Position numbers and translations under genes: made by a program
Assembly: GCA_963745035.1 (NCBI GenBank)
Contig: CAVUVW010000013.1
Coordinates: 1,472,001 to 1,536,000 of the forward strand
Source: an uncultured delta proteobacterium
GTDB taxonomy: Bacteria > Desulfobacterota > Binatia > UBA9968
Length of the DNA stretch: 64,000 nt
Reading direction: 5' to 3'
Shown: piece by piece, positions 6,601 to 55,982 of the stretch
Numbering within the stretch: position 1 is the stretch's first letter
How the letters are laid out: the number at the start of each line of letters is the position of its first letter
The notes under the pieces: model-generated
Databases searched by the model: none
Told to the model about the DNA's origin: nothing
Seen by the model: the letters and a program-made list of their open reading frames with translations, nothing else

Positions 6601-7836
6601 AGCAACGCTATCGCCTGACAGCACAACCTCCGCGACCCTTTCGTTGCGTCGATCCACCGCGGGCAAAATCCACCAGGCGAATCCGCCCAGCACTAACAAT
6701 CCGCCGCCGCAAATGAGATAGAGCATGTCGATGCCGCTCCGGTCGATGAACCATCCCGCTGAGAGGTTCGACGCCATGCCGGCGACGCCGCTGCCCACCA
6801 TCGAAAGTACTCCCTGCGCCGTAGAGCGCAGTTTCTCCGGTGCGACTGCATCGAGGTAAAGTGGGCTCCCCAAGTTGAGCCCGACAACCGTGACGCCGTG
6901 CAATGCCTGAACGACGAACAAGATCGTCGGATCGGTGACGAGAGCGCAAAGCGACCAGCGCACGCCGCCGATCAACACGCCCAACGCTACGAGCCCGCGC
7001 GCGCCGAGCCGCTTCAAGCCGCTTCCGGTCAGCCACACGAGAGGTATCTCGACGATCAGCATAAGGATCCACATGTCGCGAATCGTGCCCAAGTCGCCGC
7101 CGCGCGAGCGCACGAAGAGCGGAAAGAGCCACATCGGACCATGCATCAAGAAATGGGCGAGCAAAGAAAATACGAGGAATCGCGCGAAGGCTCGGTTGCC
7201 GATCAGCCCGCGCCAATCACCCCGCGCGGCGCGCAGGCCGACAACACCCTTCCTCGGCAGAAAAAACGCGACAAACGCGGCTATCAGAACGAGAGCGGCG
7301 GTGATCGGAAACATCAAGCCGAGCCCAGGCTGCGAAACGCCGACTGCCGCCGCGCGGTATTCAAGCGGAGCGGGAAAATTTTGCAAAATCCAAGGGAACA
7401 CAAGAATAATGATAAAATAGCCCACGGTTCCCCAGACGCGCACCCTCCCGAATGCGTGCCGGCCCTCATCGCGCAGAATCGCCATGCTCACCGACATCAT
7501 CATCGGGAAAATTGGTGTGCCAACCAGTGCGAGAATGGAGGTTGCAAGCACGATCGGCCAGAATCCTGCCGCCATGCCCAGCATGAGATAGCCGAACGCA
7601 GTGCCAACGGTGAGAAAAGCCAAAGTGCGCGTGCGCGCGCCGGTTCGATCGGCAATCTGCCCCCAGACCGGCTGAGCGAACATGCCGACCAGCGGTGATA
7701 TCGCCAGGACCAATCCGACTTGCGTCCCGGAAAGTCCGGCATTTTCTCTTAGATAGAGGCTGAAATACGGAAAGAAAATCCCCAGCGAACCGAAGTACAC
7801 GAACCAAAACGAGGTGAGCGGAATAGAATGCCACAT
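6598..7836 (-). CDS. MFS transporter (HcaT / MFS_1_like)
   Basis: About 12 TM segments, WGQIADRTG, FGRVRVWGTVGY. Confidence 0.9.
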   Translation of the reverse strand: MWHSIPLTSFWFVYFGSLGIFFPYFSLYLRENAGLSGTQVGLVLAISPLVGMFAQPVWGQIADRTGARTRTLAFLTVGTAFGYLMLGMAAGFWPIVLATSILALVGTPIFPMMMSVSMAILRDEGRHAFGRVRVWGTVGYFIIILVFPWILQNFPAPLEYRAAAVGVSQPGLGLMFPITAALVLIAAFVAFFLPRKGVVGLRAARGDWRGLIGNRAFARFLVFSLLAHFLMHGPMWLFPLFVRSRGGDLGTIRDMWILMLIVEIPLVWLTGSGLKRLGARGLVALGVLIGGVRWSLCALVTDPTILFVVQALHGVTVVGLNLGSPLYLDAVAPEKLRSTAQGVLSMVGSGVAGMASNLSAGWFIDRSGIDMLYLICGGGLLVLGGFAWWILPAVDRRNERVAEVVLSGDSVA

Positions 7837-7875
7837 TGCGCGATGATAGCATTCATCATCGCCGTCTTCGACGGC

Positions 7876-7973
7876 GGTTCCATCCGTTTCAATTGTTCCA
7901 GAGTTCCAAGGCGTTCACGACGAGGAATTCGATTACGATTGGAACGTTTGAAACGGCTGGAACGATTGGAACG
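7876..7973. repeat. Inverted arms of 9-bp tandem units (GTTCCA-type left, TGGAAC-type right)
   Basis: Right arm gattggaac gtttgaaac ggctggaac gattggaac (7937-7972); left arm is the degenerate reverse complement. Confidence 0.75.
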
Positions 7974-7993
7974 CGAGCGAAGCGAGAGCCCCT

Positions 7994-8527
7994 GTGAACT
8001 GCGCCGCCAGCCGCACCGTCCATACTATCGGCCATTCGACGCGATCGATCGAGAACTTCATCGACCTGCTCCGAGCGCATGCGATCGAACTGCTGATCGA
8101 CGTGCGCCGCTGGCCGGCCTCCAAGCGAAATCCGCAGTTCGGCCGAGAGGCTCTCGCGGCATCGCTCAACGAAACCGGTGTTGAGTACCTGTGGCGCGGT
8201 GACCTCGGCGGCTTTCGCAAGCCCAAGCCGGATTCGGTCAATACCGCTTGGCAGGTCGGCGCCTTCCGCGCCTATGCAGATTTCATGTTGACGCCGGAAT
8301 TCGCAAACATCGTATTTGAAGTCGAAAAGCTAGCAGGCACGAAACGCGCCGCCTTCATGTGTGCCGAAGCCGTGCCTTGGCAGTGCCACCGTCAGCTGTT
8401 GGCCGACGCCTTTCTTGTGCGCGGTTGGAACGTGCGCCACATCATGGACGACGGCTGCCGCGAGCATCGGCTGCCGCCGTTTGCGCGGCCAGACGGTGAG
8501 CGGATTGTTTACAGCGGACTGATTTAA
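7994..8527 (+). CDS. DUF488 family protein
   Basis: HTIGHSTR, LIDVRRWPASKRNPQF, LGGFR, MCAEAVPWQCHRQLLAD. Confidence 0.9.
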   Translation: MNCAASRTVHTIGHSTRSIENFIDLLRAHAIELLIDVRRWPASKRNPQFGREALAASLNETGVEYLWRGDLGGFRKPKPDSVNTAWQVGAFRAYADFMLTPEFANIVFEVEKLAGTKRAAFMCAEAVPWQCHRQLLADAFLVRGWNVRHIMDDGCREHRLPPFARPDGERIVYSGLI

Positions 8528-8535
8528 GCGCAAGA

Positions 8536-8735
8536 ATGAACTACCCGCGCAGCAAGCTGCGCGGTTTCGAAGGCTCGTCATACAAACGATTCCGATTCCG
8601 TCACCCCCGAATGTTTTAGTCGGGGGTCCAGATCCGGATTAGCCTGGATTCCCGCTTAAAACATGCGGGAATGACGAACTTCTGATGGGTCGTTGCGAAA
8701 ACGCAGCAGCCCGGAATGAATCCCCCACCGATTTA
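8536..8735. repeat. Composite intergenic element: hairpin ccgcgcagc-aa-gctgcgcgg plus REP doublet 8599-8676
   Basis: Perfect 9-bp stem at 8545-8564. 8642-8676 is the exact reverse complement of 38242-38276 (35 bp). Confidence 0.75.
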
Positions 8736-8742
8736 ACGCGGT

Positions 8743-9511
8743 CTATCTGTACATGCCCGTGGGATCGAGTTCGTCACGAATCAGGCGCAGATCTTCCGCG
8801 GAAGGCGCGCTGACTTCGTCGATCTTGGCGGCGAGTCGGAGCGGCCAACCGACCTCGGCTTGCACATCGCTCACCGTCACGCCGGGATAGAGGGCGCTTA
8901 GCTGCATTTCGCGCTGGGGATTGTCGAAGCTCAAAATCGCTTTGTCGGTGATCATGAGTTCCGGACCGCCGCCGGGAAGGCCGAGCCGGGCGCGGCTATC
9001 GCCGCCCGTGAGGTGGCCCGGGCTGGTGACAAAATCAAGCTTTTCGACGAAGGCCCTGCGCTTTAGCCGCATGATCATGAACGTGCGCTGAGCGTTGGTG
9101 GCGATTTCGCAGGCGCCGCCGCTGCCCGGAAGACGCGTTTTGGGTTTGGCGTAGTCGCCGATCACGGTGGAATTGAGATTGCCATGCCGATCGACCTGAG
9201 CGCCGCCGAGAAGCGCGATCTCGACCAGGCCGCGCTGCAAATACAAACCGAACAGATCCGCCATCGAAACTACCGAGGTGGCGCCGCTGACCAGAGGTCG
9301 GATCGCCGATGGAGAGCGGCAAACGCTCCGGCCGCGCGCCGTAAACGCCCGATTCGTAGATCAGCTCCATGTCCGGCGCGACGGTACGTTGGGCAAGATT
9401 ACACGCGATGTTCGGCAGGCCGACGCCGACAAACACGGTGCGCGCTCCACTCAACGCGTGCGCCGCAGTGACGATCATCATTTCCGAGGGCGTGTAGGCG
9501 ACCTCGCTCAT
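8743..9511 (-). CDS. pcaJ: 3-oxoadipate CoA-transferase subunit B (glutaconate CoA-transferase type); frameshift near 9290
   Basis: VFVGVGLP, LIYESG (catalytic Glu), LGGAQVDRHGNLNST, RLPGSGGA, FVEKLDFVTS; pca operon context. Confidence 0.8.
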
Positions 9512-41933: not shown

Positions 41934-42335
41934 CTATAAATGAGAAAAGAACGCGGGGGCTTCCTGCCACCTGTCGTTCAACCCGTCAACATAGGTAATT
42001 GGTAATTTGGAAAGTTCTTCTTCCGTGACGCCCTCGAGGCATCCAACGTTGACGCCGTACATCTTTCCGATCGGTGTCTCGTTTCCGACGCCGAAGGCGC
42101 GGACGCCACAGTGCTTACAGAAGAAGTGCTGGTTCTTCCTCGTGTTGAAGAGGTACTCGGTCATCTCGTGCTCGCCCGCCAGCAACCGGAAACCGTCGGG
42201 CCTGGCAACTGCTACCCAAAATCTGTTTCTTCTGCAGATGGAGCAGTTACACCTGTAGGTGCTCGCCGTAAGGTCGAGATCAGCTTCGAACCGAACTGTT
42301 CCGCAGTGGCAACTCCCCTGATATGTTTTCATCAT
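41934..42335 (-). CDS. GFA/CENP-V family protein
   Basis: YQGSCHCG, CNCSIC, HFFCKHCG, VNVGCL. Confidence 0.92.
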   Translation of the reverse strand: MMKTYQGSCHCGTVRFEADLDLTASTYRCNCSICRRNRFWVAVARPDGFRLLAGEHEMTEYLFNTRKNQHFFCKHCGVRAFGVGNETPIGKMYGVNVGCLEGVTEEELSKLPITYVDGLNDRWQEAPAFFSHL

Positions 42336-42573
42336 CTCCCTCGGCCCATGTGTGAAATAGTATTGATCCGTGGCCGGCCTAACGTATCGGTTGAGAGGGG
42401 CGAGACCAGCGAGCAAGTAGCGGCCGTAATCGAGGCAACTCCGCCCAAAGGAATATTTGCCACGCAAACCCATGCGAAGGAAGGATCATCGTCAGTCCGA
42501 ACATTAAACTAACGCCTCAAAAGCCCACTGACTTATCTCGCTAACGATTTGAGCCATTGCCCCACGTGAGAGA

Positions 42574-47414: not shown

Positions 47415-48133
47415 ATGCGCTACGAGCTTTACTATTGGCCGTCGATCCAGGGCCGCGGCGAGTTTGTTCGTCTCGCGCTCGAAGACGCGGGCGCCGACTA
47501 TGTCGATGTCGCGCGCAAACCGAAAGGCATGGCGGCGATGGAGCGGCTGATGGAGAGCCGCTCCATCGACCATCCGCCTTACGCGCCCCCGTTCTTGAAA
47601 GCCGGCAAGCTTCTCATCGCGCAGACCGCGAACATCCTTTTGTATCTTGGACCGCGGCTGGGTCTGGTTCCAAACAGTGATCCGATCAGGTTGTGGGCGC
47701 ACCAGCTCCAACTCACGATCGCCGATTGGGTCGCCGAGGCCCATGACACGCATCATCCGATCGCGAGCAGTCTTTACTACGAGGATCAGAGAGACGAAGC
47801 CAAGCGGCGCGCCGCTGATTTCACCGCCGAGCGCATGCCGAAATATCTCGGTTACTTCGAAAGAATACTCAAGCGCAATCCGAAAGGAGGCGAGCTATCT
47901 TCTTGGGAAAAAGGTTTCCTATGTCGATCTCTCGTTGTTTCAAGTGATCGAAGGCTTACGCTACGCGTTCCCGCGCGCCATGGAGCGGCTCGAAGCCAAA
48001 CATCCGACTGTCGATCGCACTGCGCGATCGCATCGCTGCGCGGCCGCGATTGGCTGCGTATCTCTCATCGGAACGTCGCATCGCTTTCAATCAAGATGGC
48101 ATCTTTCGCCACTACCCCGAGCTCGATGATTGA
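47415..48133 (+). CDS. Glutathione S-transferase; frameshifts near 47895 and 48015
   Basis: YELYYWPSIQGRGEFVRLALE, APPFL, IAQTANILLYL, SYVDLSLFQ..EGLRYAFP, FNQDGIFRHYPELD. Confidence 0.88.
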
Positions 48134-48190
48134 GGATTGCCAAAGCCGCTGATTGGTTTACATTGAAAAACTAATCAAGGAGGTCCAATC

Positions 48191-48850
48191 ATGGCAATCG
48201 AACTTTACTGGGGCAGCGGCAGTCCGTTCGCGTGGCGCGTGATGTTGACCCTCGAAGTGAAAGGGCTCGCGTACGAATCGAAGTTGCTGGAGTTCTCCAA
48301 AGGCGACCACAAAACGCCGTCCTATCTACAGCTCAATCCGCGCGGCAAAGTACCGACGCTCAAAGACGGCGAGTTCGTTGTCTACGAATCGCTTGCCATG
48401 ATGGCTTATCTCGATCGCAAATATCCCGATCCGCCGCTCTTCGGTAAAACTCCCGAAGAGACAGGTCTCATTTGGCAAGCGCTATCGGAATGTGAGTCGT
48501 ATCTCGTTAGCGCCGGCGACAAGGTCGTCCGGCCGCTCTTCTTCGGCAAGGGCTTGGACAAGGTCGATGAAATTCAACAAGCGGCGCAAACGATTCGCCA
48601 GGAGTGGAAATCCATCGATGCGCGCCTCGCCCGATCGAATTGGCTGGTCGGCACGCAGATTTCCGCGGCGGATATCACCGTCTTTCCCGTGGTGCAATTG
48701 CTTTTACGCGCAGCGTCCAAAGAGGCGGCCCAGCCGCTTGATCTGGGGTTGATGCCTTTGTCGCAAACTTATCCGAATCTCGCCCGTTGGGTTCGGCAAA
48801 TCGAAGCCCTGCCCGGCTACGAGCGCACCTATCCACCCCACTGGCGATAA
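48191..48850 (+). CDS. Glutathione S-transferase family protein
   Basis: LYWGSGSPFAWRV, LNPRGKVPTL, YESLAM, SAADI, YPPHW. Confidence 0.92.
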   Translation: MAIELYWGSGSPFAWRVMLTLEVKGLAYESKLLEFSKGDHKTPSYLQLNPRGKVPTLKDGEFVVYESLAMMAYLDRKYPDPPLFGKTPEETGLIWQALSECESYLVSAGDKVVRPLFFGKGLDKVDEIQQAAQTIRQEWKSIDARLARSNWLVGTQISAADITVFPVVQLLLRAASKEAAQPLDLGLMPLSQTYPNLARWVRQIEALPGYERTYPPHWR

Positions 48851-48889: not shown

Positions 48890-49866
48890 ATGCACCATCT
48901 GGCGGAATTTATCAAGCGAATCCTTCTCGTCTTGATCATATTGATCGCGGCGCCAAGGCGACGCCGCGGAACGCGCCAAGCTCACTCTTGGCTATTCCAG
49001 CACCGGACCGACCGGCGTTGGATTGTGGGTGGCAAAGGACATCGGCGCTTTCGACAAATACGGCGTCGACCCCAATCTTGTTTTCATTTCTTCCGGTCCG
49101 GTGATGGTTCCCGCGCTGATCGGCGGCGACGTCCAGGCCGCCGTCGCCGGAGCGAACGCGGTGATCGCCGCGGTGCTCGGCGGCGCGCCGATCGTATCGG
49201 TAGCGAGCCTCGCCAATCGTCCCTATCTACGACTTTGGGTTCACCCCGAGGTTACTCGCGTCGAAGAGCTGCGCGGCAAGACTTTCGGGGTGTCCCGCTT
49301 CGGCGCGACGACGGATAATTTGACGAGAATTCTTCTGCGCCGGGTCGGCCTGGAAAACGCCGTGACCATCCGCCAGCTCGGCGGCACGCTCGAAGTCGGA
49401 CTCGCTTTTCGCCACCGGCAGATCGACGGCGCGGTTCTCGCGACTCTCCGCACCGACGTGCCGCATCGAATTTTGATCGAGCTCGCCGAATCGGGCATTC
49501 AATATTCCATGGGGCAGCTCGCTGTCTCGCGTGACTTTCAACGCCGCTCTCCGGACACGCTCGAGAAAATCATGCGCGCCTACCTCGAAGGCGTTGCGGT
49601 AGTGCGCGACCCCAACCAGAAAGAGCGCGTGCTCAAGACATTAGTGCGTTATACGCGGCTCAAGGAAAGCAAGGCGATCGAAGAGATCTACAGCGACGCT
49701 TTCAAGTACGTCGATCGCGTTCCACGCGTCGAAGCTGAAGCTGTTTCCGCGACGTTGGAATTCATGGGCAAAAAAGGCCTGCCGGTCGAAACCTTCGCGG
49801 ACAATTCCATCATCGACCGCTTGGTAAAGGAAGGGTTTCGTCGATCAGCTGTACAAAAAAAGGTAG
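48890..49866 (+). CDS. SsuA/THI5-like ABC substrate-binding protein; frameshifts near 48960-49020 and 49835
   Basis: WVAKDIGAFDKYG, ELRGKTFGVSRFGATTD, DNSIIDRLVKEG. Confidence 0.85.
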
Positions 49867-49871
49867 TCGGC

Positions 49872-50753
49872 CTAGCAATTACAGCGCAGTGAAAATTCGT
49901 TTTCTCTATCGAGCAGCGACTCGCCGATCGCTTGATGATCGGCGACATGGCGCGAGACCGTGCTCAATCCTCTGCGATAGAGATCCTTGACCTCTTCTTC
50001 CCAGTCGCGCCGGCCGTTGCCGGACCACTGAAACGGCAGCTCGAGGATTTTCCAGGGAGGGACAAACGCCGGGGCGGAGGCCAGCGCCGCGCGCAAGATT
50101 TCACGCTGGAGCTCCGGCTCATTGGGTTTTCCCGCAGGACAGCCTAGCGGAAAGTCCAGAAACACCGTGCGCGGCGGCTTGAAGGCCATGCTGACCTCCC
50201 ACAGCGTGCTCATCGAGAGCGTGGGCAAACCTCGCGCTTCGAGAGCCCGCGCGATCAGTCCGACGGACCGATGACAGGCGGGTCAGAACGGGAAGAGAAA
50301 AACCAGGTCGACGCCTTGGCGGTCAAATTCGTCCTTGATAGCGGGAACGGTGGTCTTTAGCAGCTCGGTAAATTTGCTGATCGATCCCACCATCGAAACG
50401 GCTCGCGGAGCGAGCCCGCCGATAACGCCTTCGGCTTCCAGCTCGACCAGCCGGTCGCGCGGAAACGCAACGTTCATATCTTCGAGAGCCCAGCGTCGAA
50501 CCGGCGTCTGATGGGCGATCGTGAGCTCCGAGTAGGGCGTCCGGCGATCGATCAGGCGGTAGGACAGATCATTGGTTTCATTCAGAGGAGCGTCGTCGCG
50601 CAATTGAACGCCTGCGCTCGTGAAGATACCGATGGTCGATTGAGAAATGGGCTTGCGCAGCGGCGTGAGCCGGGGCGGCGCAAAATTGGGCTGCCGGGGA
50701 TAAGGCTGCGGCGCCATGAGCTCGGTCATGAATTGGACGTAGCTGAACGGCAA
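49872..50753 (-). CDS. PrdB/GrdB (D-proline/glycine reductase selenoprotein B)-like protein; probable selenoprotein (UPAC, TGA at 50283-50285)
   Basis: ORF 50283..50753 (TSAGV, DLSYR, DMNVAFP.DRL.EL..EG.IG, GVDLVFL) reads through TGA in frame to PACHRSVGLIARALEARGLPT...PPR...FPLG and ORF 49872..50228; 293 aa. Confidence 0.85.
50246..50282 (-). promoter_or_regulatory. Putative bacterial SECIS hairpin
   Basis: mRNA after UGA: CCCGC-cuguc-AUCGGUCC-guc-GGACUGAU-cgc-GCGGG (lower and upper stems, G in loop). Confidence 0.7.
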
Positions 50754-50943
50754 AGCGTTCCCTCCTCACAAGGTGGAACGATTCATCAATACGTCCATCG
50801 CAAGACCGCAGTCAATCGATCTTCTCAGGACTTGCTCCAAGCCTCCTCTTGACTCACCGTTTGCGCTTGTCTTACCTTGCGCTTGGCTGTCGTCTGTCTA
50901 TGATGGTCTGGAAATTCCGCCGGCGAACGGGAGAGGAAAACAC

Positions 50944-52080
50944 ATGATGGAGAACACGCTGCTCGATGCCGACTCGCACGTGAGCGAGCCGTTGAATCTT
51001 TGGCGGGAACGTCTGCCGGCAAAGTACCGGGACATCGCTCCGCACATGGAGACGGAGTATCAGGGCCGTCCCGGCGCCTGGTGGTTCATCGAGCAAGATC
51101 GCCAGCCGCACAACGTGATCTTGGGCTTTGGGGCGAACAAATCGCTCGAAGAGCTGCAGCAGCTATTGAAAAGTTTTTCCTACGCCGGAGCACATCGCGG
51201 CGGTTGGGACCCGGCGCAGCGAGTCAAAGACATGGACCAGGACGGCGTCGCAGGCGACATTCTCTACACGACCTTGGGCTTTCGCATGTTCTGGATCCGG
51301 GACGCTGGATTTCAAAGAGCCTGCTTCCAGGTTTACAACGACTGGCTCGCGGAATTCTGCGCCCATTCGCCCAAACGTCTCAAAGGCTTGGCGCTCATCT
51401 CGCTCTATGATCCGAAGCAGGCGGCCGAAGATTTAGCGGCCTGCGCCAAAAAAGGCTTGGCCGGCGCGCTGGTTTGGGCTTCCCCGCCGGAAGAGCTGCC
51501 ATTCTATTCGGAGGACTACGATCCCTTCTGGGCAGCCGCCCAGGAGCTGTCGATGCCTCTCAGCCTGCACGAATTCGCCGGCTTTCAGTGGGTCGATTGG
51601 GATTCGAGCGCGAAGAAACGAACCATAGCCGCCGGCATCAATTCGCAGGAAGTGGAAAAGACTTTTTCCACTCTGATACTCTCCGGCGTACTCGAGAGAT
51701 TTCCCCGCCTCAACGTGGTCTCGGCGGAGTTGAACTGCGGTTGGCTGCCCTACTTTCTCCGCCGCCTGGACGAGCGCTTCGAGGCGCGCGGCGTTCGCGT
51801 TCACGGCAGCGCCTTCGCTACGAAATTGACGCTCAAGCCGAGCGAATATTTTCGCCGCCAGCTTTACGCGACATTCATCGACGACCGCTTCGGCATCGCG
51901 CATCGAAATGACATCGGCGTGGAGAACTTGCTCTGGTCATCGGACTTTCCCCACAGCGCGACGTTCTGGCCCCATTCGCGGGAAAAAATCGCGAAAGACT
52001 TCCAGGATGTCGGCGCCGAGGACAAACAAAAAATTCTCTGGCAAAACACCGCAAAACTGTACCGCTTCGACGTGGAATGA
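50944..52080 (+). CDS. Amidohydrolase_2 family protein
   Basis: LDADSHVSEP, DMDQDGV, YNDWLAEFC, SGVLERFP, AELNCGWLP, WSSDFPH. Confidence 0.9.
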   Translation: MMENTLLDADSHVSEPLNLWRERLPAKYRDIAPHMETEYQGRPGAWWFIEQDRQPHNVILGFGANKSLEELQQLLKSFSYAGAHRGGWDPAQRVKDMDQDGVAGDILYTTLGFRMFWIRDAGFQRACFQVYNDWLAEFCAHSPKRLKGLALISLYDPKQAAEDLAACAKKGLAGALVWASPPEELPFYSEDYDPFWAAAQELSMPLSLHEFAGFQWVDWDSSAKKRTIAAGINSQEVEKTFSTLILSGVLERFPRLNVVSAELNCGWLPYFLRRLDERFEARGVRVHGSAFATKLTLKPSEYFRRQLYATFIDDRFGIAHRNDIGVENLLWSSDFPHSATFWPHSREKIAKDFQDVGAEDKQKILWQNTAKLYRFDVE

Positions 52081-52371: not shown

Positions 52372-53460
52372 ATGCAGTTCGGGCTTTTTTCCAACGGCGA
52401 AAGACACAATCAAGTCGCCAAGGTCACCTACGACGAGGATTTGGCCGAAGTCATTCTGGCCGATGAGCTCGGCTTACAGGAGGCATGGATCAGCGAGCAC
52501 GGAACGTTCGTCAGCTTCCACGCGCCGGACCAACTTCCCTGCGCCGATCCGTTTATTTGCAAGGCCGCGGCTCTGACCAAGCAGATCCGCATGGGGCCGG
52601 GCATCCGCCCGCTTCCCTACTTTCATCCTTTGCAGGTCGCCACCGACGCAGCGGTCTGCGATCACCTGACCAACGGCCGCTACATGGCCGGCTTCGGCGT
52701 CGGCCTCCCGGGCAAGACACCGCAGCGCGGCAAGCTTCCCGGCGATACCCGCGCCATGACCCGCGAAGCGATCGAGCTGATTCTCACCGCTTGGACCGCG
52801 ACCGAACCGTTCGACTGGCACGGCGAATTCTGGCAAGGCGAGCAACTGCACATCATCCCCCAGCCCTTGACCAAGCCGCACATGGAAGTCGGCATGGCTT
52901 GCTCGCGCAGCGAGGGAACCCTCGAGCTGACCGCGCAAAAGGGCTTCATTCCGCTCATGAGCTGGACGCCGCAATCCGGACAACTCAAAAACATGATCGA
53001 AATCTACCAGCGCGCCGGCGAGGAAGCGCAACGCCCCGCGCCGCGGAGCCGCGTGCGCGTCGCGCGCATGATCTACGTCACCGACTCGGTGGCGCAAGCC
53101 AAGCGCGATCTCAGCGGCATCGACCTCGGCGCCGCCAAAGTGACGCGCCGCCTCGATCAATACATTCCCGCAGGCGGCGCGCGTGACGACTTGACGATGG
53201 ATTACATGATCGATCGCGGCGCATTTTTCTGCGGCGATCCCGACACGGTCTATAACCAAATCAAAGAGCTGTACGACGAAACCGGCGGCTTCGGTGTTTT
53301 GCTTCTGCTCGCCGGCAAAGATTGGGGCAGCCACGAGCAGCGGCTGCGCTCAATGCGGCTTTTCATGTCCGAAGTTGCGCCACGGCTGACGCGGCTGAAT
53401 CCGGCCGCGGCGGCACAGAAGCAGTCCCCGATAGAATCGCATAGCTCACGGAGGTCATGA
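52372..53460 (+). CDS. LLM-class (luciferase-like) flavin-dependent monooxygenase
   Basis: MQFGLF, ADELG..EAWISEH, LPYFHPLQVA...A..DHLTNGR, GDPDTV, GGFGVLL. Confidence 0.92.
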   Translation: MQFGLFSNGERHNQVAKVTYDEDLAEVILADELGLQEAWISEHGTFVSFHAPDQLPCADPFICKAAALTKQIRMGPGIRPLPYFHPLQVATDAAVCDHLTNGRYMAGFGVGLPGKTPQRGKLPGDTRAMTREAIELILTAWTATEPFDWHGEFWQGEQLHIIPQPLTKPHMEVGMACSRSEGTLELTAQKGFIPLMSWTPQSGQLKNMIEIYQRAGEEAQRPAPRSRVRVARMIYVTDSVAQAKRDLSGIDLGAAKVTRRLDQYIPAGGARDDLTMDYMIDRGAFFCGDPDTVYNQIKELYDETGGFGVLLLLAGKDWGSHEQRLRSMRLFMSEVAPRLTRLNPAAAAQKQSPIESHSSRRS

Positions 53461-54257
53461 TGTTCGCTCACATCAAACACGCAGCGATTTATACCCAGAA
53501 CCCGGGCGCGATGATCGCCTTCTATGAAAAGATTCTAGGCATGAAGCGAATCACCACCGCGGTGACCGAAGCCAATCGCGGCCACATCAGCGACGGGCTC
53601 ATCGGGCTGGCCGTGCTCGCAAGACGGCCGGGAATTCCGGGAGGCTTGGATCATTTCGGCTTTGAAGTCGACGATATCGAGACGGTGCTGCAAAGAATCA
53701 GAGACAAGTATCCGAAGACGATCATTACAAAAGGGCTTGAGAGAGTTCCGTTCGCGGTTTTTCGCAGCCACGACCCGGCCGGGGCACAGTTCGATATCTC
53801 CGAGCGCACCCACGAGAAAGTTCGCGAGGGTTACAAGGAAGACGGTTGGGATCAACCGCGCCAGTTCAACCACGTTGTGATTCGCGCCGCCGAGCCGAGG
53901 CAAATCGCGGAGTTCTACCAGGAAGTTTTCGAGCTCTTCGAAGTCAAGGAACCGCCGCTCGGCGATGCCGTCTGCCTGAGCGACGGCAAGGTTCGCCTGC
54001 TTATCCTGCCGACGAACAACAGCTCCTATATCAGCATGCGCCAGGGCCTCGATCACATCGGCTTCAAGGTCGAGAGCATCGAGCAAGCCAAGAAGGATCT
54101 CGATGCGCTGGCCGGTTCTGTGCCCGCGTCGGCAGCCAAGGATATCGGCGCCGGCATTTTCGGACATTTCACGAAGGCGGACATGGCAGCGTGCAAGATC
54201 GGCCAGTACGCCCTGGCCGATCCCGACGGCGTCCTGCTGGACTTTTCAGAAAACTGA
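53457..54257 (+). CDS. Two-domain VOC family protein, paralog of 15783..16664
   Basis: IKHAAI, GLDHFGFEV, HDPAG, GLDHIGFKVE, ADPDG. Confidence 0.85.
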   Translation: MMFAHIKHAAIYTQNPGAMIAFYEKILGMKRITTAVTEANRGHISDGLIGLAVLARRPGIPGGLDHFGFEVDDIETVLQRIRDKYPKTIITKGLERVPFAVFRSHDPAGAQFDISERTHEKVREGYKEDGWDQPRQFNHVVIRAAEPRQIAEFYQEVFELFEVKEPPLGDAVCLSDGKVRLLILPTNNSSYISMRQGLDHIGFKVESIEQAKKDLDALAGSVPASAAKDIGAGIFGHFTKADMAACKIGQYALADPDGVLLDFSEN

Positions 54258-54264
54258 TTGCGAC

Positions 54265-55222
54265 ATGGCGAATCCGAATCGAATCCGGATACTGTGTATC
54301 CTCGTCGGCGCTCTTTTGATCTGCGTTCCCGCGCCGGCGATTGCGCAGCAGCTCAACCCAGATTCATATCGGCGTGCCGACCAACACGGTGACTTGGTTC
54401 CCGCTCTACGTGGCGTGGAAGAAGGGAATTTTTCAGGAACAGGGCATCGAGATGCTGCCGGTCACGATGTCGGTGCGCGCTTCCCTTGGGGCTTTGGCGT
54501 CACGGCATATTTCCTACATCACGCCTCTCGGTTCCTCGATGACGGCGATCGCCAACGGCCTTCCCGCCAAAGTGATCATGATCTTCGCGGTGCGATCGCA
54601 TCACGTCCTCGTCTCCAAACGTGAGATCGTTGCGCCGAGCGCACTGCGCGGTCACGGCGTCGCTATCAGCCAACCCGGCGGCACGGTCCACCGGCAGTTC
54701 CTCAAAATTCTCGAGCACTACAAGGTCGATCCCAAAGACGTGAAGATGATCAACTTGGGGGAAATGCCGAACCGCGCTCTCGCTCTCAAAGCCGGCACCA
54801 TCGACGCGGCGATGTTGAGCGTGCCCTACGATCTGTTCATGGAGAAGGACGGTTTTAGACCGATCGCCTATCTGAAGGATATCCTGGAGTTTCCGCTTCT
54901 CGGATTGATCGCCCATGACGAGCGCATAAGAGAAAGACCGGACGAGGTCAAAAAAGTTTTGACCGCCGCGCTCAAGGGCATCGCTTATACCAAGACTCAT
55001 CGCGAAGAGGTGCTGCCACTGCTGAAACAGTTTGTCGGCCTGCCGACGGTCGACATGACCCGCAAAACCTATGACGTGATCAAAGAACTTTGGCCGGATA
55101 ATGGAATTCCGTCCGACAAGGGACTGGCGATCGCTCTGAGCATGGCCGACGTGCCGCCAAACTTTCCTCCTGCAAAGATGGTCGATTGGTCGCTCGTCAG
55201 GGAGGCGGCGAAAAGCCGCTGA
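54265..55222 (+). CDS. SsuA/THI5-like ABC substrate-binding protein; frameshift near 54355
   Basis: Signal peptide MANPNRIRILC..., PLYVAWKKGIFQEQG, MVDWSLVREA. Confidence 0.85.
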
Positions 55223-55266: not shown

Positions 55267-55797
55267 TTATTTCTCCGCCGGAAACCAGCCCTGCTGTTTG
55301 ATCAAGCCACGCAGATATTCGATTTGTCCCGCGTGGCGCGTGTTGCAGTTGACGACGCTGGCCAGGCGAATGCTCAACGTCGGCAGCGGTTGATACTGCG
55401 GTTCGTCGAGCACGCGATTCAGATCGGCGTTCGAGACGCTCGCCAGATAGCTCTTGGTTTGGGCGAACACCGCGTCGAGATAGTCGAGCAGCAGCGGCTT
55501 GTCAGAGACCGTAAACGCCTCCACCTGCGCTCGCGTCTGCCTGTGGCCTGAGCCGTAATCTTTCGGATCCGCCGGCATGTGGAAGCGCGCATGCCAACCC
55601 TCGGCGATCCACAACTGCGGGCGATCCAACAGTCCGGAAAAGTTGGCATCTTGGACACGCGAAAGGTGCCAGACGAGCCAGGCGATATGCGGCCTGGGCG
55701 GGGCGAGCAACTCTTCCGGCGACAGATCCTTCAGCGCCTCGCGCACCATGTCGCGCACGCGCCCTAACGCATCTAGAACCAATCCGGCGGCTTCCAT
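55267..55797 (-). CDS. DinB/YfiT-family (S-transferase-like) protein
   Basis: IAWLVWHLSRVQD, W...F, RHAGQIEYLRG. Confidence 0.85.
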   Translation of the reverse strand: MEAAGLVLDALGRVRDMVREALKDLSPEELLAPPRPHIAWLVWHLSRVQDANFSGLLDRPQLWIAEGWHARFHMPADPKDYGSGHRQTRAQVEAFTVSDKPLLLDYLDAVFAQTKSYLASVSNADLNRVLDEPQYQPLPTLSIRLASVVNCNTRHAGQIEYLRGLIKQQGWFPAEK

Positions 55798-55982
55798 CCG
55801 TGACTTCCTCAAAGGCTATTATCGGTTTCACACTATCAGATGCCGGGTGGGTGCGGCGAGATGCAAGATCGCTTTTCAGTTAGCCATTCAAGGAACATCC
55901 CCCACTTGACGGCCATGATGCACCTGCCCTATCGTGCCGCTAGGTCGCCGGTCGCCCACCAACCCATCACAAGGAGGCAGTT

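Follow-up and report, generated by a model that had tools for sequence, protein, structure and literature searches.

We analyzed a 64,000-nucleotide stretch of DNA, hereafter the window, from an uncultured delta proteobacterium (GTDB Binatia; GenBank assembly GCA_963745035.1, contig CAVUVW010000013.1, positions 1,472,001 to 1,536,000). Its minus strand carries a gene for a probable selenoprotein related to the B-type subunits of D-proline reductase (PrdB) and glycine reductase (GrdB). Positions 50753..49872 form one reading frame of 293 sense codons with a sole in-frame TGA at 50285-50283 and a TAG stop. Calling open reading frames (ORFs) with translation table 11 yields two halves, 50283..50753 (156 aa) and 49872..50228. 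The original prediction held that these ORFs join in frame across the one TGA to give a 293-aa protein ending in LRCNC, and the frame and translation agree. The read-through product contains ...VDLVFLFPF-U-PACHRSVGLIARALE... and has the C-terminus ...NEFSLRCNC. The gene is monocistronic and has the following features.

49872..50753, minus strand: PrdB-like selenoprotein gene; one frame with one TGA, match to the NCBIfam PrdB model TIGR04483 (E 3.8e-40), whole frame kept in orthologues
50283..50285, minus strand: UGA as putative selenocysteine (Sec) U157, first residue of U-P-A-C; conserved codon that aligns with the C-x-x-C-H of PrdB
50274-50276, minus strand: C160 codon, putative resolving position of the UxxC motif
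50251..50275, minus strand: hairpin resembling a Sec insertion sequence (SECIS), with a 2-bp lower and an 8-bp upper stem (50254-50272) and the apical loop GUC (50262-50264)
50139..50141, minus strand: clade-specific Cys205 in FLDFPLGCPAGKP; invariant in 18/18 aligned sequences, Ser in true PrdB, unconserved in other PrdB-like clades
49875..49883, minus strand: C291-N-C293 (CxC), the end of a ~50-residue clade-specific extension; CxC at the end in 76/78 loci
50753-50751, minus strand: TTG start codon; orthologues begin at the same residue, M-P-F-S-Y
50761..50765, minus strand: GGAGG Shine-Dalgarno sequence with a 7-nt spacer to TTG, read from the sequence

A scan of 49600-51100 for promoters and terminators returned none of either.

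The in-frame TGA is conserved. A six-frame search of 41 related genomes, the source genome included, recovered full-length orthologues (residues 1-293, 63-100% identity; 63-87% among relatives) in eight genomes, each with the in-frame TGA. U stands at the identical codon in 8/8 of these orthologues (FPFUP[AQS]CHRSVGL), and all end in RC[NQD]C; the one in genome G005 additionally carries a TAA. We also scanned public genomes, one per species, where 269 of 310 candidate stretches encode a relative and 80 loci were kept. Codon counts cover 78 of the 80, the motif search having missed L089 and L107. The Sec/Cys codon is TGA in 16 loci, TGC in 35 and TGT in 27, so that Cys codons number 62. The TGA forms come from metagenome-assembled genomes (MAGs) of Binatia type or labelled 'delta proteobacterium', from Acidobacteriota and from one Lustribacter chromosome. 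Cys occupies the U position in 17/17 database homologues aligned with the window protein, and the Cys homologues are full-length. The gene thus combines the conserved in-frame UGA and the Cys homologues by which a bacterial selenoprotein gene is recognized.

Bacterial SECIS elements are stem-loops placed shortly past the UGA, under a spacing rule, with a G in the apical loop. The window hairpin is such a downstream stem-loop and has the apical G. The sequence CAUC(G/A)GUCC-GUN-GGACUGAUCGC lies 3' of the codon in 20/20 distinct TGA-form sequences. RNAalifold on these 20 Sec forms gave 10 pairs, of which two make up the lower stem and eight the upper stem, capped by the loop GUN. The lower stem begins 7 nt and the upper stem 10 nt past the UGA. 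Covariation among the Sec forms consists of one compensatory change (UA to CG), and one-sided changes that keep the pairs occur as GU to AU in 4 sequences and CG to UG in 9. The hairpin had been predicted to follow the UGA directly, and its 10-pair core is conserved; the longer outer stem seen when the window is folded as a single sequence (z = -1.0) is not. Cys forms have unrelated nucleotides at this position and the peptide HRAT.VIA, where Sec forms have HRSVGLIA. An RNA constraint therefore appears to shape the protein only where the codon is TGA.

The source genome encodes the machinery for Sec decoding. The selA, selB and selD genes are clustered on contig C17, all above model cut-offs, and a tRNA-SeC gene (anticodon tca) is located on the same contig. 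The selD gene in this cluster (G000:C17:318816-319742) itself contains one in-frame TGA and would encode a selenoprotein SelD. Independent sequences retain the window TGA: contigs from public runs of two other studies span it with no difference at 50283-50285 (run X1 record 2, 49788-50393; run X5 record 6, 50065-50367). A related contig from run X5 has a 1-base deletion at 50227 at a depth of ~4. A 160-nt rhizosphere metatranscriptome contig (run X15) matches 50074-50218, downstream of the TGA, with one difference. At most this contig hints at transcription, since its length does not suffice to judge expression or read-through and DNA carry-over is possible. The claim that a selenoprotein gene is hidden at this locus is thus backed by the conserved TGA, the TGA-specific hairpin and the Sec machinery, and we regard the TGA as very probably a genuine Sec codon.

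We compared the window protein with models of the PrdB/GrdB superfamily. TIGR04483 is matched over model positions 16-234 of 238 with 137.8 bits, below the PrdB equivalog cut-off of 300 bits; the control protein P0172 scores 453. The GrdF, GrdB and GrdH models match by their C-terminal half only (GrdF positions 223-421 of 435, E 1.1e-11), and the GrdB scores fall under their cut-offs (PF07355, 19.5 vs 22, E 6.5e-4; TIGR01918, 34.7 vs 65.45, E 9.5e-9). These sub-threshold E-values still show kinship at the superfamily level. We aligned the window protein with P0172, which passes the PrdB model, and with several other PrdB-like clades. R66, D92, P98, G123, D149, R195, P202, G204 and G208 are invariant across PrdB, the other clades and the clade described here. 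The U/C-x-x-C-H site is common to all of them, and FPFUPACHRS aligns with GGCGTCHRS of P0172, which places Sec/Cys-x-x-Cys-His of the window protein at the position homologous to that of PrdB. The proposed PrdB/GrdB homology with U at the catalytic UxxC is therefore upheld. A by-eye alignment of HQTPV with the PrdB motif HGG(F/Y)D was also positionally right: P0172 reads HGGFD there, and the window protein keeps H81 alone.

The window protein belongs to a clade with its own sequence features. U/C157, C160, H161, C205, C291 and C293 are invariant inside the clade (18-row alignment). Its specific features are HQTPV, Cys205 in place of the PrdB Ser, and a helical C-terminal extension of ~50 residues, not present in true PrdB, that ends in CxC. 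This tail, first noticed in the window protein, proved to be family-wide (CNC in 54 loci, CAC in 19, CQC in 2 and CDC in 1), and only L069 and L106 differ, both apparently truncated or shifted. We define the clade by a length of ~294 aa, U/C157-x-x-C160-H, FLDFPLGC205 and an extension ending in CxC, all of which the window protein has. It is very probably the Sec form of this distinct clade in the PrdB/GrdB superfamily.

Most members of the clade are Cys forms. Of 5140 candidates scored in a protein database, 312 were relatives at E <=1e-5; the best 120 of the 312 are almost all 292-294 aa and 56-65% identical to the window protein. In a library clustered at 50% identity, 40 representatives reached E <=1e-30 and 1349 reached E <=1e-3, which makes this a clade of considerable size within a larger PrdB-like superfamily. 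An ESM Atlas search with the natural homologue P0002 returned GRDB-labelled clusters only. Hosts, mostly of Cys forms, are soil Acidobacteriota, Eremiobacterota/Vulcanimicrobiota and Actinomycetota, and cultured hosts of Cys forms include Amycolatopsis, Catenulispora, Nocardia, Saccharopolyspora and Streptomyces. The gene is therefore no one-off but the Sec form of a large, mostly Cys family.

We examined how Sec and Cys forms are distributed with a quick maximum-likelihood tree of 80 members, under midpoint rooting only (L037 and L106 were excluded because of their length, and L089 and L107 because the motif was missing). The 19 Sec forms are a grade around two nested all-Cys clades, from Eremiobacterota (8) and Acidobacteriota (24), and the Actinomycetota Cys forms fall outside this grade. 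The tree requires a minimum of three Sec/Cys changes; shuffled labels gave a mean of 17.2, and 0/500 shuffles were as low. The tree and the shared hairpin would fit one origin of the Sec form with at least two reversions to Cys, a tentative direction of change. Two contigs labelled Saccharimonadales or 'Patescibacteria group' (L053 and L065) place inside or beside the acidobacterial branches. L053 shows the acidobacterial gene order, and both contigs are perhaps mis-binned.

PrdB and GrdB act with a pyruvoyl partner, and we asked where such partners are encoded. No prdA/grdE, grdA or thioredoxin gene lies beside the selenoprotein gene in the window. The long ORFs from three GrdE loci of the source genome served as queries against 81 loci with 8 kb of flanking sequence per side. 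No GrdE query matched any locus, and the sole matching query was an Amidohydro_2 ORF that resides in one of the GrdE loci. PF09338, the pyruvoyl PrdA family, gave 0 matches in 5/5 other host genomes (two complete Amycolatopsis chromosomes, two Lustribacter chromosomes, one of them with the Sec form, and a Terriglobia MAG), whereas the same search finds 5 in the source genome. The co-encoded PrdA of true PrdB systems is thus missing from these hosts. Four of the five, the Sec-form host included, have selA. These results suggest that the family works without PrdA/GrdE. The earlier claim that the protein has no partners holds locally for the window and, as far as PrdA/GrdE are concerned, for the 81 loci and the five host genomes. 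It fails genome-wide: the source genome has one GrdA with a TGA, four GrdB loci and five GrdE-like genes, all five beside the GrdB loci.

The Grd genes of the source genome drew our attention in their own right. They sit at C27:167-172k, C11:122-125k, C13:702-705k, C15:301-303k and C13:1654710-1655141, and the GrdB genes are Sec forms. An apparently soil-dwelling Binatia-type genome therefore holds a full gene set of the glycine/betaine-reductase type, which is usually tied to anaerobes. A paralogue of the amidohydrolase next to the window gene (G000:C13:705147-706226; L114:2964-4133, plus strand; phmmer E 5e-49) is divergent from a grdE-grdB(Sec) pair, an arrangement that mirrors the window in setting an amidohydrolase divergent from a B-type selenoprotein. 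The genome also contains a second stand-alone PrdB-like selenoprotein gene (G000:C13:1804681-1805448; L117:8682-9449, plus strand), which is 33% identical to the first and codes for ~256 aa. Its product reads VPY-U-PFCHE across one in-frame TGA and has no CxC tail in the stretch read; two TctC-family binding-protein genes follow. Matches of this second type (30-37% identity, one TGA) are found in most of the 41 related genomes.

The genes around the selenoprotein gene in the window are as follows.

50944..52080, plus strand: Amidohydro_2 protein (ACMSD-like superfamily), divergent; PF04909, E 4.8e-27
52372-53460, plus strand: luciferase-like monooxygenase (LLM), by domain scan
53457-54257, plus strand: two-domain protein of the VOC/glyoxalase type, by domain scan
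54341-55222, plus strand: NMT1-type binding protein, by domain scan
49023..49892, plus strand: NMT1/THI5-like binding protein, convergent; the listed ORF overlaps the selenoprotein 3' end by 21 nt

This is the context that had been claimed, with a divergent amidohydrolase followed by monooxygenase, VOC and binding-protein genes. The listed 435-aa Amidohydro_2 ORF starts at GTG 50773 and overlaps the ribosome-binding region of the selenoprotein gene. Its real start is probably Met 58 of this ORF (~50944), because orthologues of 378-379 aa begin M..LLDADSHV; the intergenic distance would then be ~190 bp. The same divergent neighbour, 83-89% identical, occurs in four close loci, and the convergent NMT1 gene lies within 200 bp in three (L031-L033). 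A thiol theme marks the window within 8 kb of the selenoprotein gene, where there are two GST genes, one gene of the DinB/mycothiol-S-transferase type and one for a GFA (glutathione-dependent formaldehyde-activating) protein (47415-48850, 55267-55812, 41934-42473); these genes are not among the recurrent neighbour clusters of other loci.

We counted neighbours within 500 bp in 79 loci (78 plus the window), using profiles built from clusters in the same loci (E 1e-10). Amidohydro_2 proteins were the most frequent (22/79 loci), ahead of an unnamed acidobacterial protein (13), FAH-family hydrolases (7), FAD aromatic-ring hydroxylases, SDR proteins and NMT1 binding proteins (5 each) and molybdenum hydroxylases (3). 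Where an Amidohydro_2 gene occurs within 8 kb (35 loci), it is within 500 bp in 22 cases, in three arrangements from three phyla. The gene is divergent in Binatia, directly upstream in Actinomycetota, and directly downstream in Acidobacteriota, where cytochrome c and PQQ dehydrogenase genes follow. In L082 the Amidohydro_2 stop overlaps the PrdB-like start (GTGA), in an operon with an HMGL-like gene (assigned by eye) and an ABC uptake system. Operons of cultured actinomycetes have the order PrdB-like, FAH, VOC dioxygenase-type, ..., FAD hydroxylase, SDR, FAH. Homologues of the window VOC and LLM genes occur within 8 kb in 13/81 and 9/81 loci, respectively. This context points to the aerobic breakdown of an acid with an aromatic or heterocyclic ring rather than to Stickland fermentation.

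The recurring amidohydrolase raised the idea of an obligate subunit that replaces PrdA. We did not adopt it, as the gene is adjacent in merely 22/79 loci and the acidobacterial proteins seem exported. These (L042:9097-10185 and similar) begin MK.K....G(V/I)(A/E/P)RR(K/N/E), which resembles a twin-arginine export signal, and the proteins may be periplasmic. A predicted complex of the L082 Amidohydro_2 (6994-7977) and PrdB-like (7977-8879) proteins, a natural Cys-form pair, scored 0.00 against a mark of 0.32, a result that speaks neither for nor against binding.

An AlphaFold2 model of the window protein (18-row alignment; pLDDT 79, pTM 0.83) has an alpha/beta core (residues 34-257) and, toward the C-terminus, a long helix. 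The final stretch with the CxC tail, residues 273-293, has pLDDT under 50 and is predicted to be disordered. A sequence search of solved structures gave a chance hit only (E 0.54).

Our analysis suggests that the protein is likely a partner-independent selenol/thiol reductase with a dithiol relay in its tail. The UGA at 50285-50283 would be decoded as selenocysteine with the aid of the hairpin just downstream, and the enzyme would act without a pyruvoyl subunit (PrdA/GrdE). By homology with PrdB, whose mechanism with a Sec nucleophile and a resolving thiol is summarised in PMC11229817, U157 may be the nucleophile and C160 the resolving thiol. The U157 selenolate would attack a small catabolic intermediate with a carboxylate group at an electrophilic centre, and C160 would resolve the adduct to a selenenyl-sulfide. 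The terminal CxC on its predicted disordered arm, together with C205, would most plausibly serve as a dithiol relay within the protein. In this scheme the flexible C291-x-C293 dithiol, possibly with C205, would re-reduce the centre, and the tail in turn would be reduced by a cellular disulfide reductant. The reaction should differ from D-proline cleavage and be less demanding, since a pyruvoyl subunit for the activation of an amine is missing and Cys forms predominate; its target is likely a carbon or heteroatom that is intrinsically electrophilic, in a substrate with a carboxylate group. We infer every catalytic step and the substrate class of this relay-reductase mechanism, and we put it forward tentatively, with somewhat more doubt than belief. 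The best explanation of the locus joins an intact Sec-decoded gene, a clade of the PrdB/GrdB superfamily and a partner-free reductase with a CxC relay, and as a whole it seems to us slightly better than an even proposition. The observation behind the original prediction is confirmed, and its interpretation is partly supported.

Several observations weigh against this explanation. The neighbourhood is variable: 57/79 loci have no Amidohydro_2 gene within 500 bp, and adjacent amidohydrolases of different phyla are merely 24-35% identical. The 7.4-Mb source genome has ~153 Amidohydro_2 (PF04909) matches, a very large expansion, so that by our own estimate chance adjacency in Binatia would occur at a few percent, and the argument from simple adjacency is weakened. 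The five Binatia cases may share descent, and loci of related genomes are not independent. Foldseek on the PDB found no match at E <=0.001. The best VIA-align hit (Z 8.1) was to generic Rossmann, flavodoxin or periplasmic-binding-like folds at the noise level stated for the tool, and we assigned no fold. For the hairpin, an Rfam scan of 50100-50400 found no matching family, its sole hit being a chance CRISPR-DR (E 6.6). Mean folding energies over positions +10 to +37 were -12.4 kcal/mol for Sec forms (n=20) and -6.6 for Cys forms (n=60), but the values overlap and the best Cys forms reach -12.5. The argument for Sec therefore stands on conserved sequence and pairing, not on energy. Finally, the five invariant Cys and the His could form a metal site.

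We weighed four other explanations. If the TGA were a true stop, the locus would hold two small genes, a pseudogene or an assembly error. Table-11 ORF calling does split the gene, and the X5 contig with its 1-base deletion also speaks for this reading. Both halves are nonetheless kept as one frame among relatives with the TGA retained, Cys homologues run full-length, only TGA forms carry the hairpin, the genome has the Sec machinery and independent contigs keep the codon, and we give a true stop very little credence. The conserved residues might instead serve a general thiol-disulfide oxidoreductase, a peroxide or electrophile detoxifier, or a metal- or cluster-binding protein, in which UxxC, C205 and CxC are a redox or ligand set and make no attack on carbon. 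UxxC is a thioredoxin-like redox motif, and in Table 3 of PMC1088965 Zhang and Gladyshev place PrdB with the thiol-dependent redox selenoproteins. The five invariant Cys plus H161, the commonness of Cys forms and the GST and DinB/MST genes a few kb off in the window would agree with such a role. However, R66, D92, D149, R195 and other residues invariant across PrdB and the clade suggest a conserved small-molecule pocket, and the gene recurs in catabolic operons, not next to stress genes; we consider a general redox or metal-binding role unlikely.

The gene order of some loci would suit a non-redox isomerase or lyase of a ring-fission product, dependent on the thiol or selenol, such as a maleylpyruvate-isomerase-like step that feeds the FAH-family hydrolase. 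In the cultured actinomycetes (loci L098-L104) an FAH-family gene begins 0-11 bp past the PrdB-like gene, in the Binatia locus L063 such a gene comes immediately before it, and VOC dioxygenase and FAD hydroxylase genes lie in the same operons. Thiol-dependent maleylpyruvate and maleylacetoacetate isomerases also attack carbon beside a carboxylate. Such an enzyme would need neither a resolving Cys nor a terminal dithiol, yet C160 and CxC are invariant, and FAH adjoins in merely 7/79 loci, which leaves an isomerase improbable. The protein could also be the B-type subunit of a Grd/Prd-like complex that relies on GrdA and a pyruvoyl GrdE-like partner from other loci of the genome. The source genome has five GrdE-like matches, four GrdB loci and a GrdA with a TGA, and the amidohydrolase paralogue is divergent from one grdE-grdB pair. 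All five GrdE-like genes, however, adjoin GrdB genes, GrdE/PrdA is found in 0/81 loci within 8 kb and PF09338 in 0/5 other host genomes, and the HGGFD segment of PrdB is replaced. We regard a borrowed partner as quite improbable, even beside the isomerase.

We compared the proposed partner-free reductase to known systems. Like PrdB of Clostridium sticklandii and Clostridioides difficile, the window protein shows near full-length homology, Sec at U/C-x-x-C-H, and shared R66, D92, D149, R195 and glycines. Unlike PrdB, it has HQTPV for HGGFD, the extra invariant C205 and the ~50-residue extension ending in CxC, and its clade has majority Cys forms and no PrdA, PrdC or PrdH context. The clade hosts are also, we assume, aerobic soil bacteria, unlike PrdB hosts. 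The C. difficile PrdB U151C variant is inactive (PMC11229817), whereas Cys forms dominate the clade, which argues for a chemistry different from that of PrdB. With GrdB/GrdF/GrdH (PF07355, TIGR01918) the protein shares homology to their C-terminal half and Sec at the same site, but it scores below both cut-offs, lacks the N-terminal half and has no GrdE or GrdA beside the gene; true GrdB-GrdE pairs, by contrast, occur elsewhere in the same genome. Mobile C-terminal redox tails are known from high-Mr thioredoxin reductase (GCUG), class I ribonucleotide reductase (R1 cysteines) and MerA (C-terminal CC). Like these enzymes, the clade has an invariant Cys pair at the extreme C-terminus, predicted to be disordered, next to an internal redox centre. 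There is no homology to them, the spacing is CxC rather than CU, CC or CxxC, and the relay is proposed here by analogy.

PrdB-type selenoproteins have been listed since 2005, so an orphan member is not new in kind. Published counts are 42 genes for 'Proline reductase PrdB' (UxxC) selenoproteins in the Sargasso Sea (PMC1088965) and 235 Sec and 110 Cys members of the PrdB family in GOS (PMC2398784), which places them among the most abundant selenoproteins of oxic ocean metagenomes in 2005 and 2008. The family of Zhang and Gladyshev resembles the clade in having PrdB-type UxxC selenoproteins with Cys homologues in oxic settings. Those texts, as available, give the family label only and mention no tail or gene context; the comparison is one of descriptions only. 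The available part of a 2026 review lists only D-proline reductase/TIGR04483 (PMC13188914), and 'GrdB-like' appears in two papers on fluoroacetate dehalorespiration (PMC10838667, PMC12366334). In the literature covered, with subscription journals and supplements outside its scope, we found no description of the clade, the CxC tail, the PrdA independence or the catabolic context, nor the terms 'PrdB-like', 'proline reductase-like' or 'PrdB homolog(s)'.

PrdB has a single known function, which depends on PrdA and on anaerobic Stickland metabolism. The locus described here defines a testable clade that offers natural Sec/Cys pairs. Automatic annotation breaks up or truncates the Sec forms and labels the Cys forms 'D-proline reductase PrdB' or 'hypothetical protein', errors that a dedicated family model would correct. 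The invariant terminal CxC and the recurring catabolic neighbours narrow the search for a substrate. Cultured hosts of Cys forms (Amycolatopsis, Catenulispora, Streptomyces) make genetics and enzymology feasible, so the orphan PrdB-like function is experimentally approachable. More speculatively, and with clear doubt on our part, the clade may represent self-sufficient Stickland 'protein B' chemistry moved into aerobic catabolism, in which Sec or Cys would attack the carbon beside a carboxylate and reductively cleave or saturate a bond with no pyruvoyl subunit, and the enzyme's own CxC arm would regenerate the centre. If this is true, thioredoxin-type reducing power would drive a step in the degradation of aromatic or heterocyclic acids in soil bacteria.

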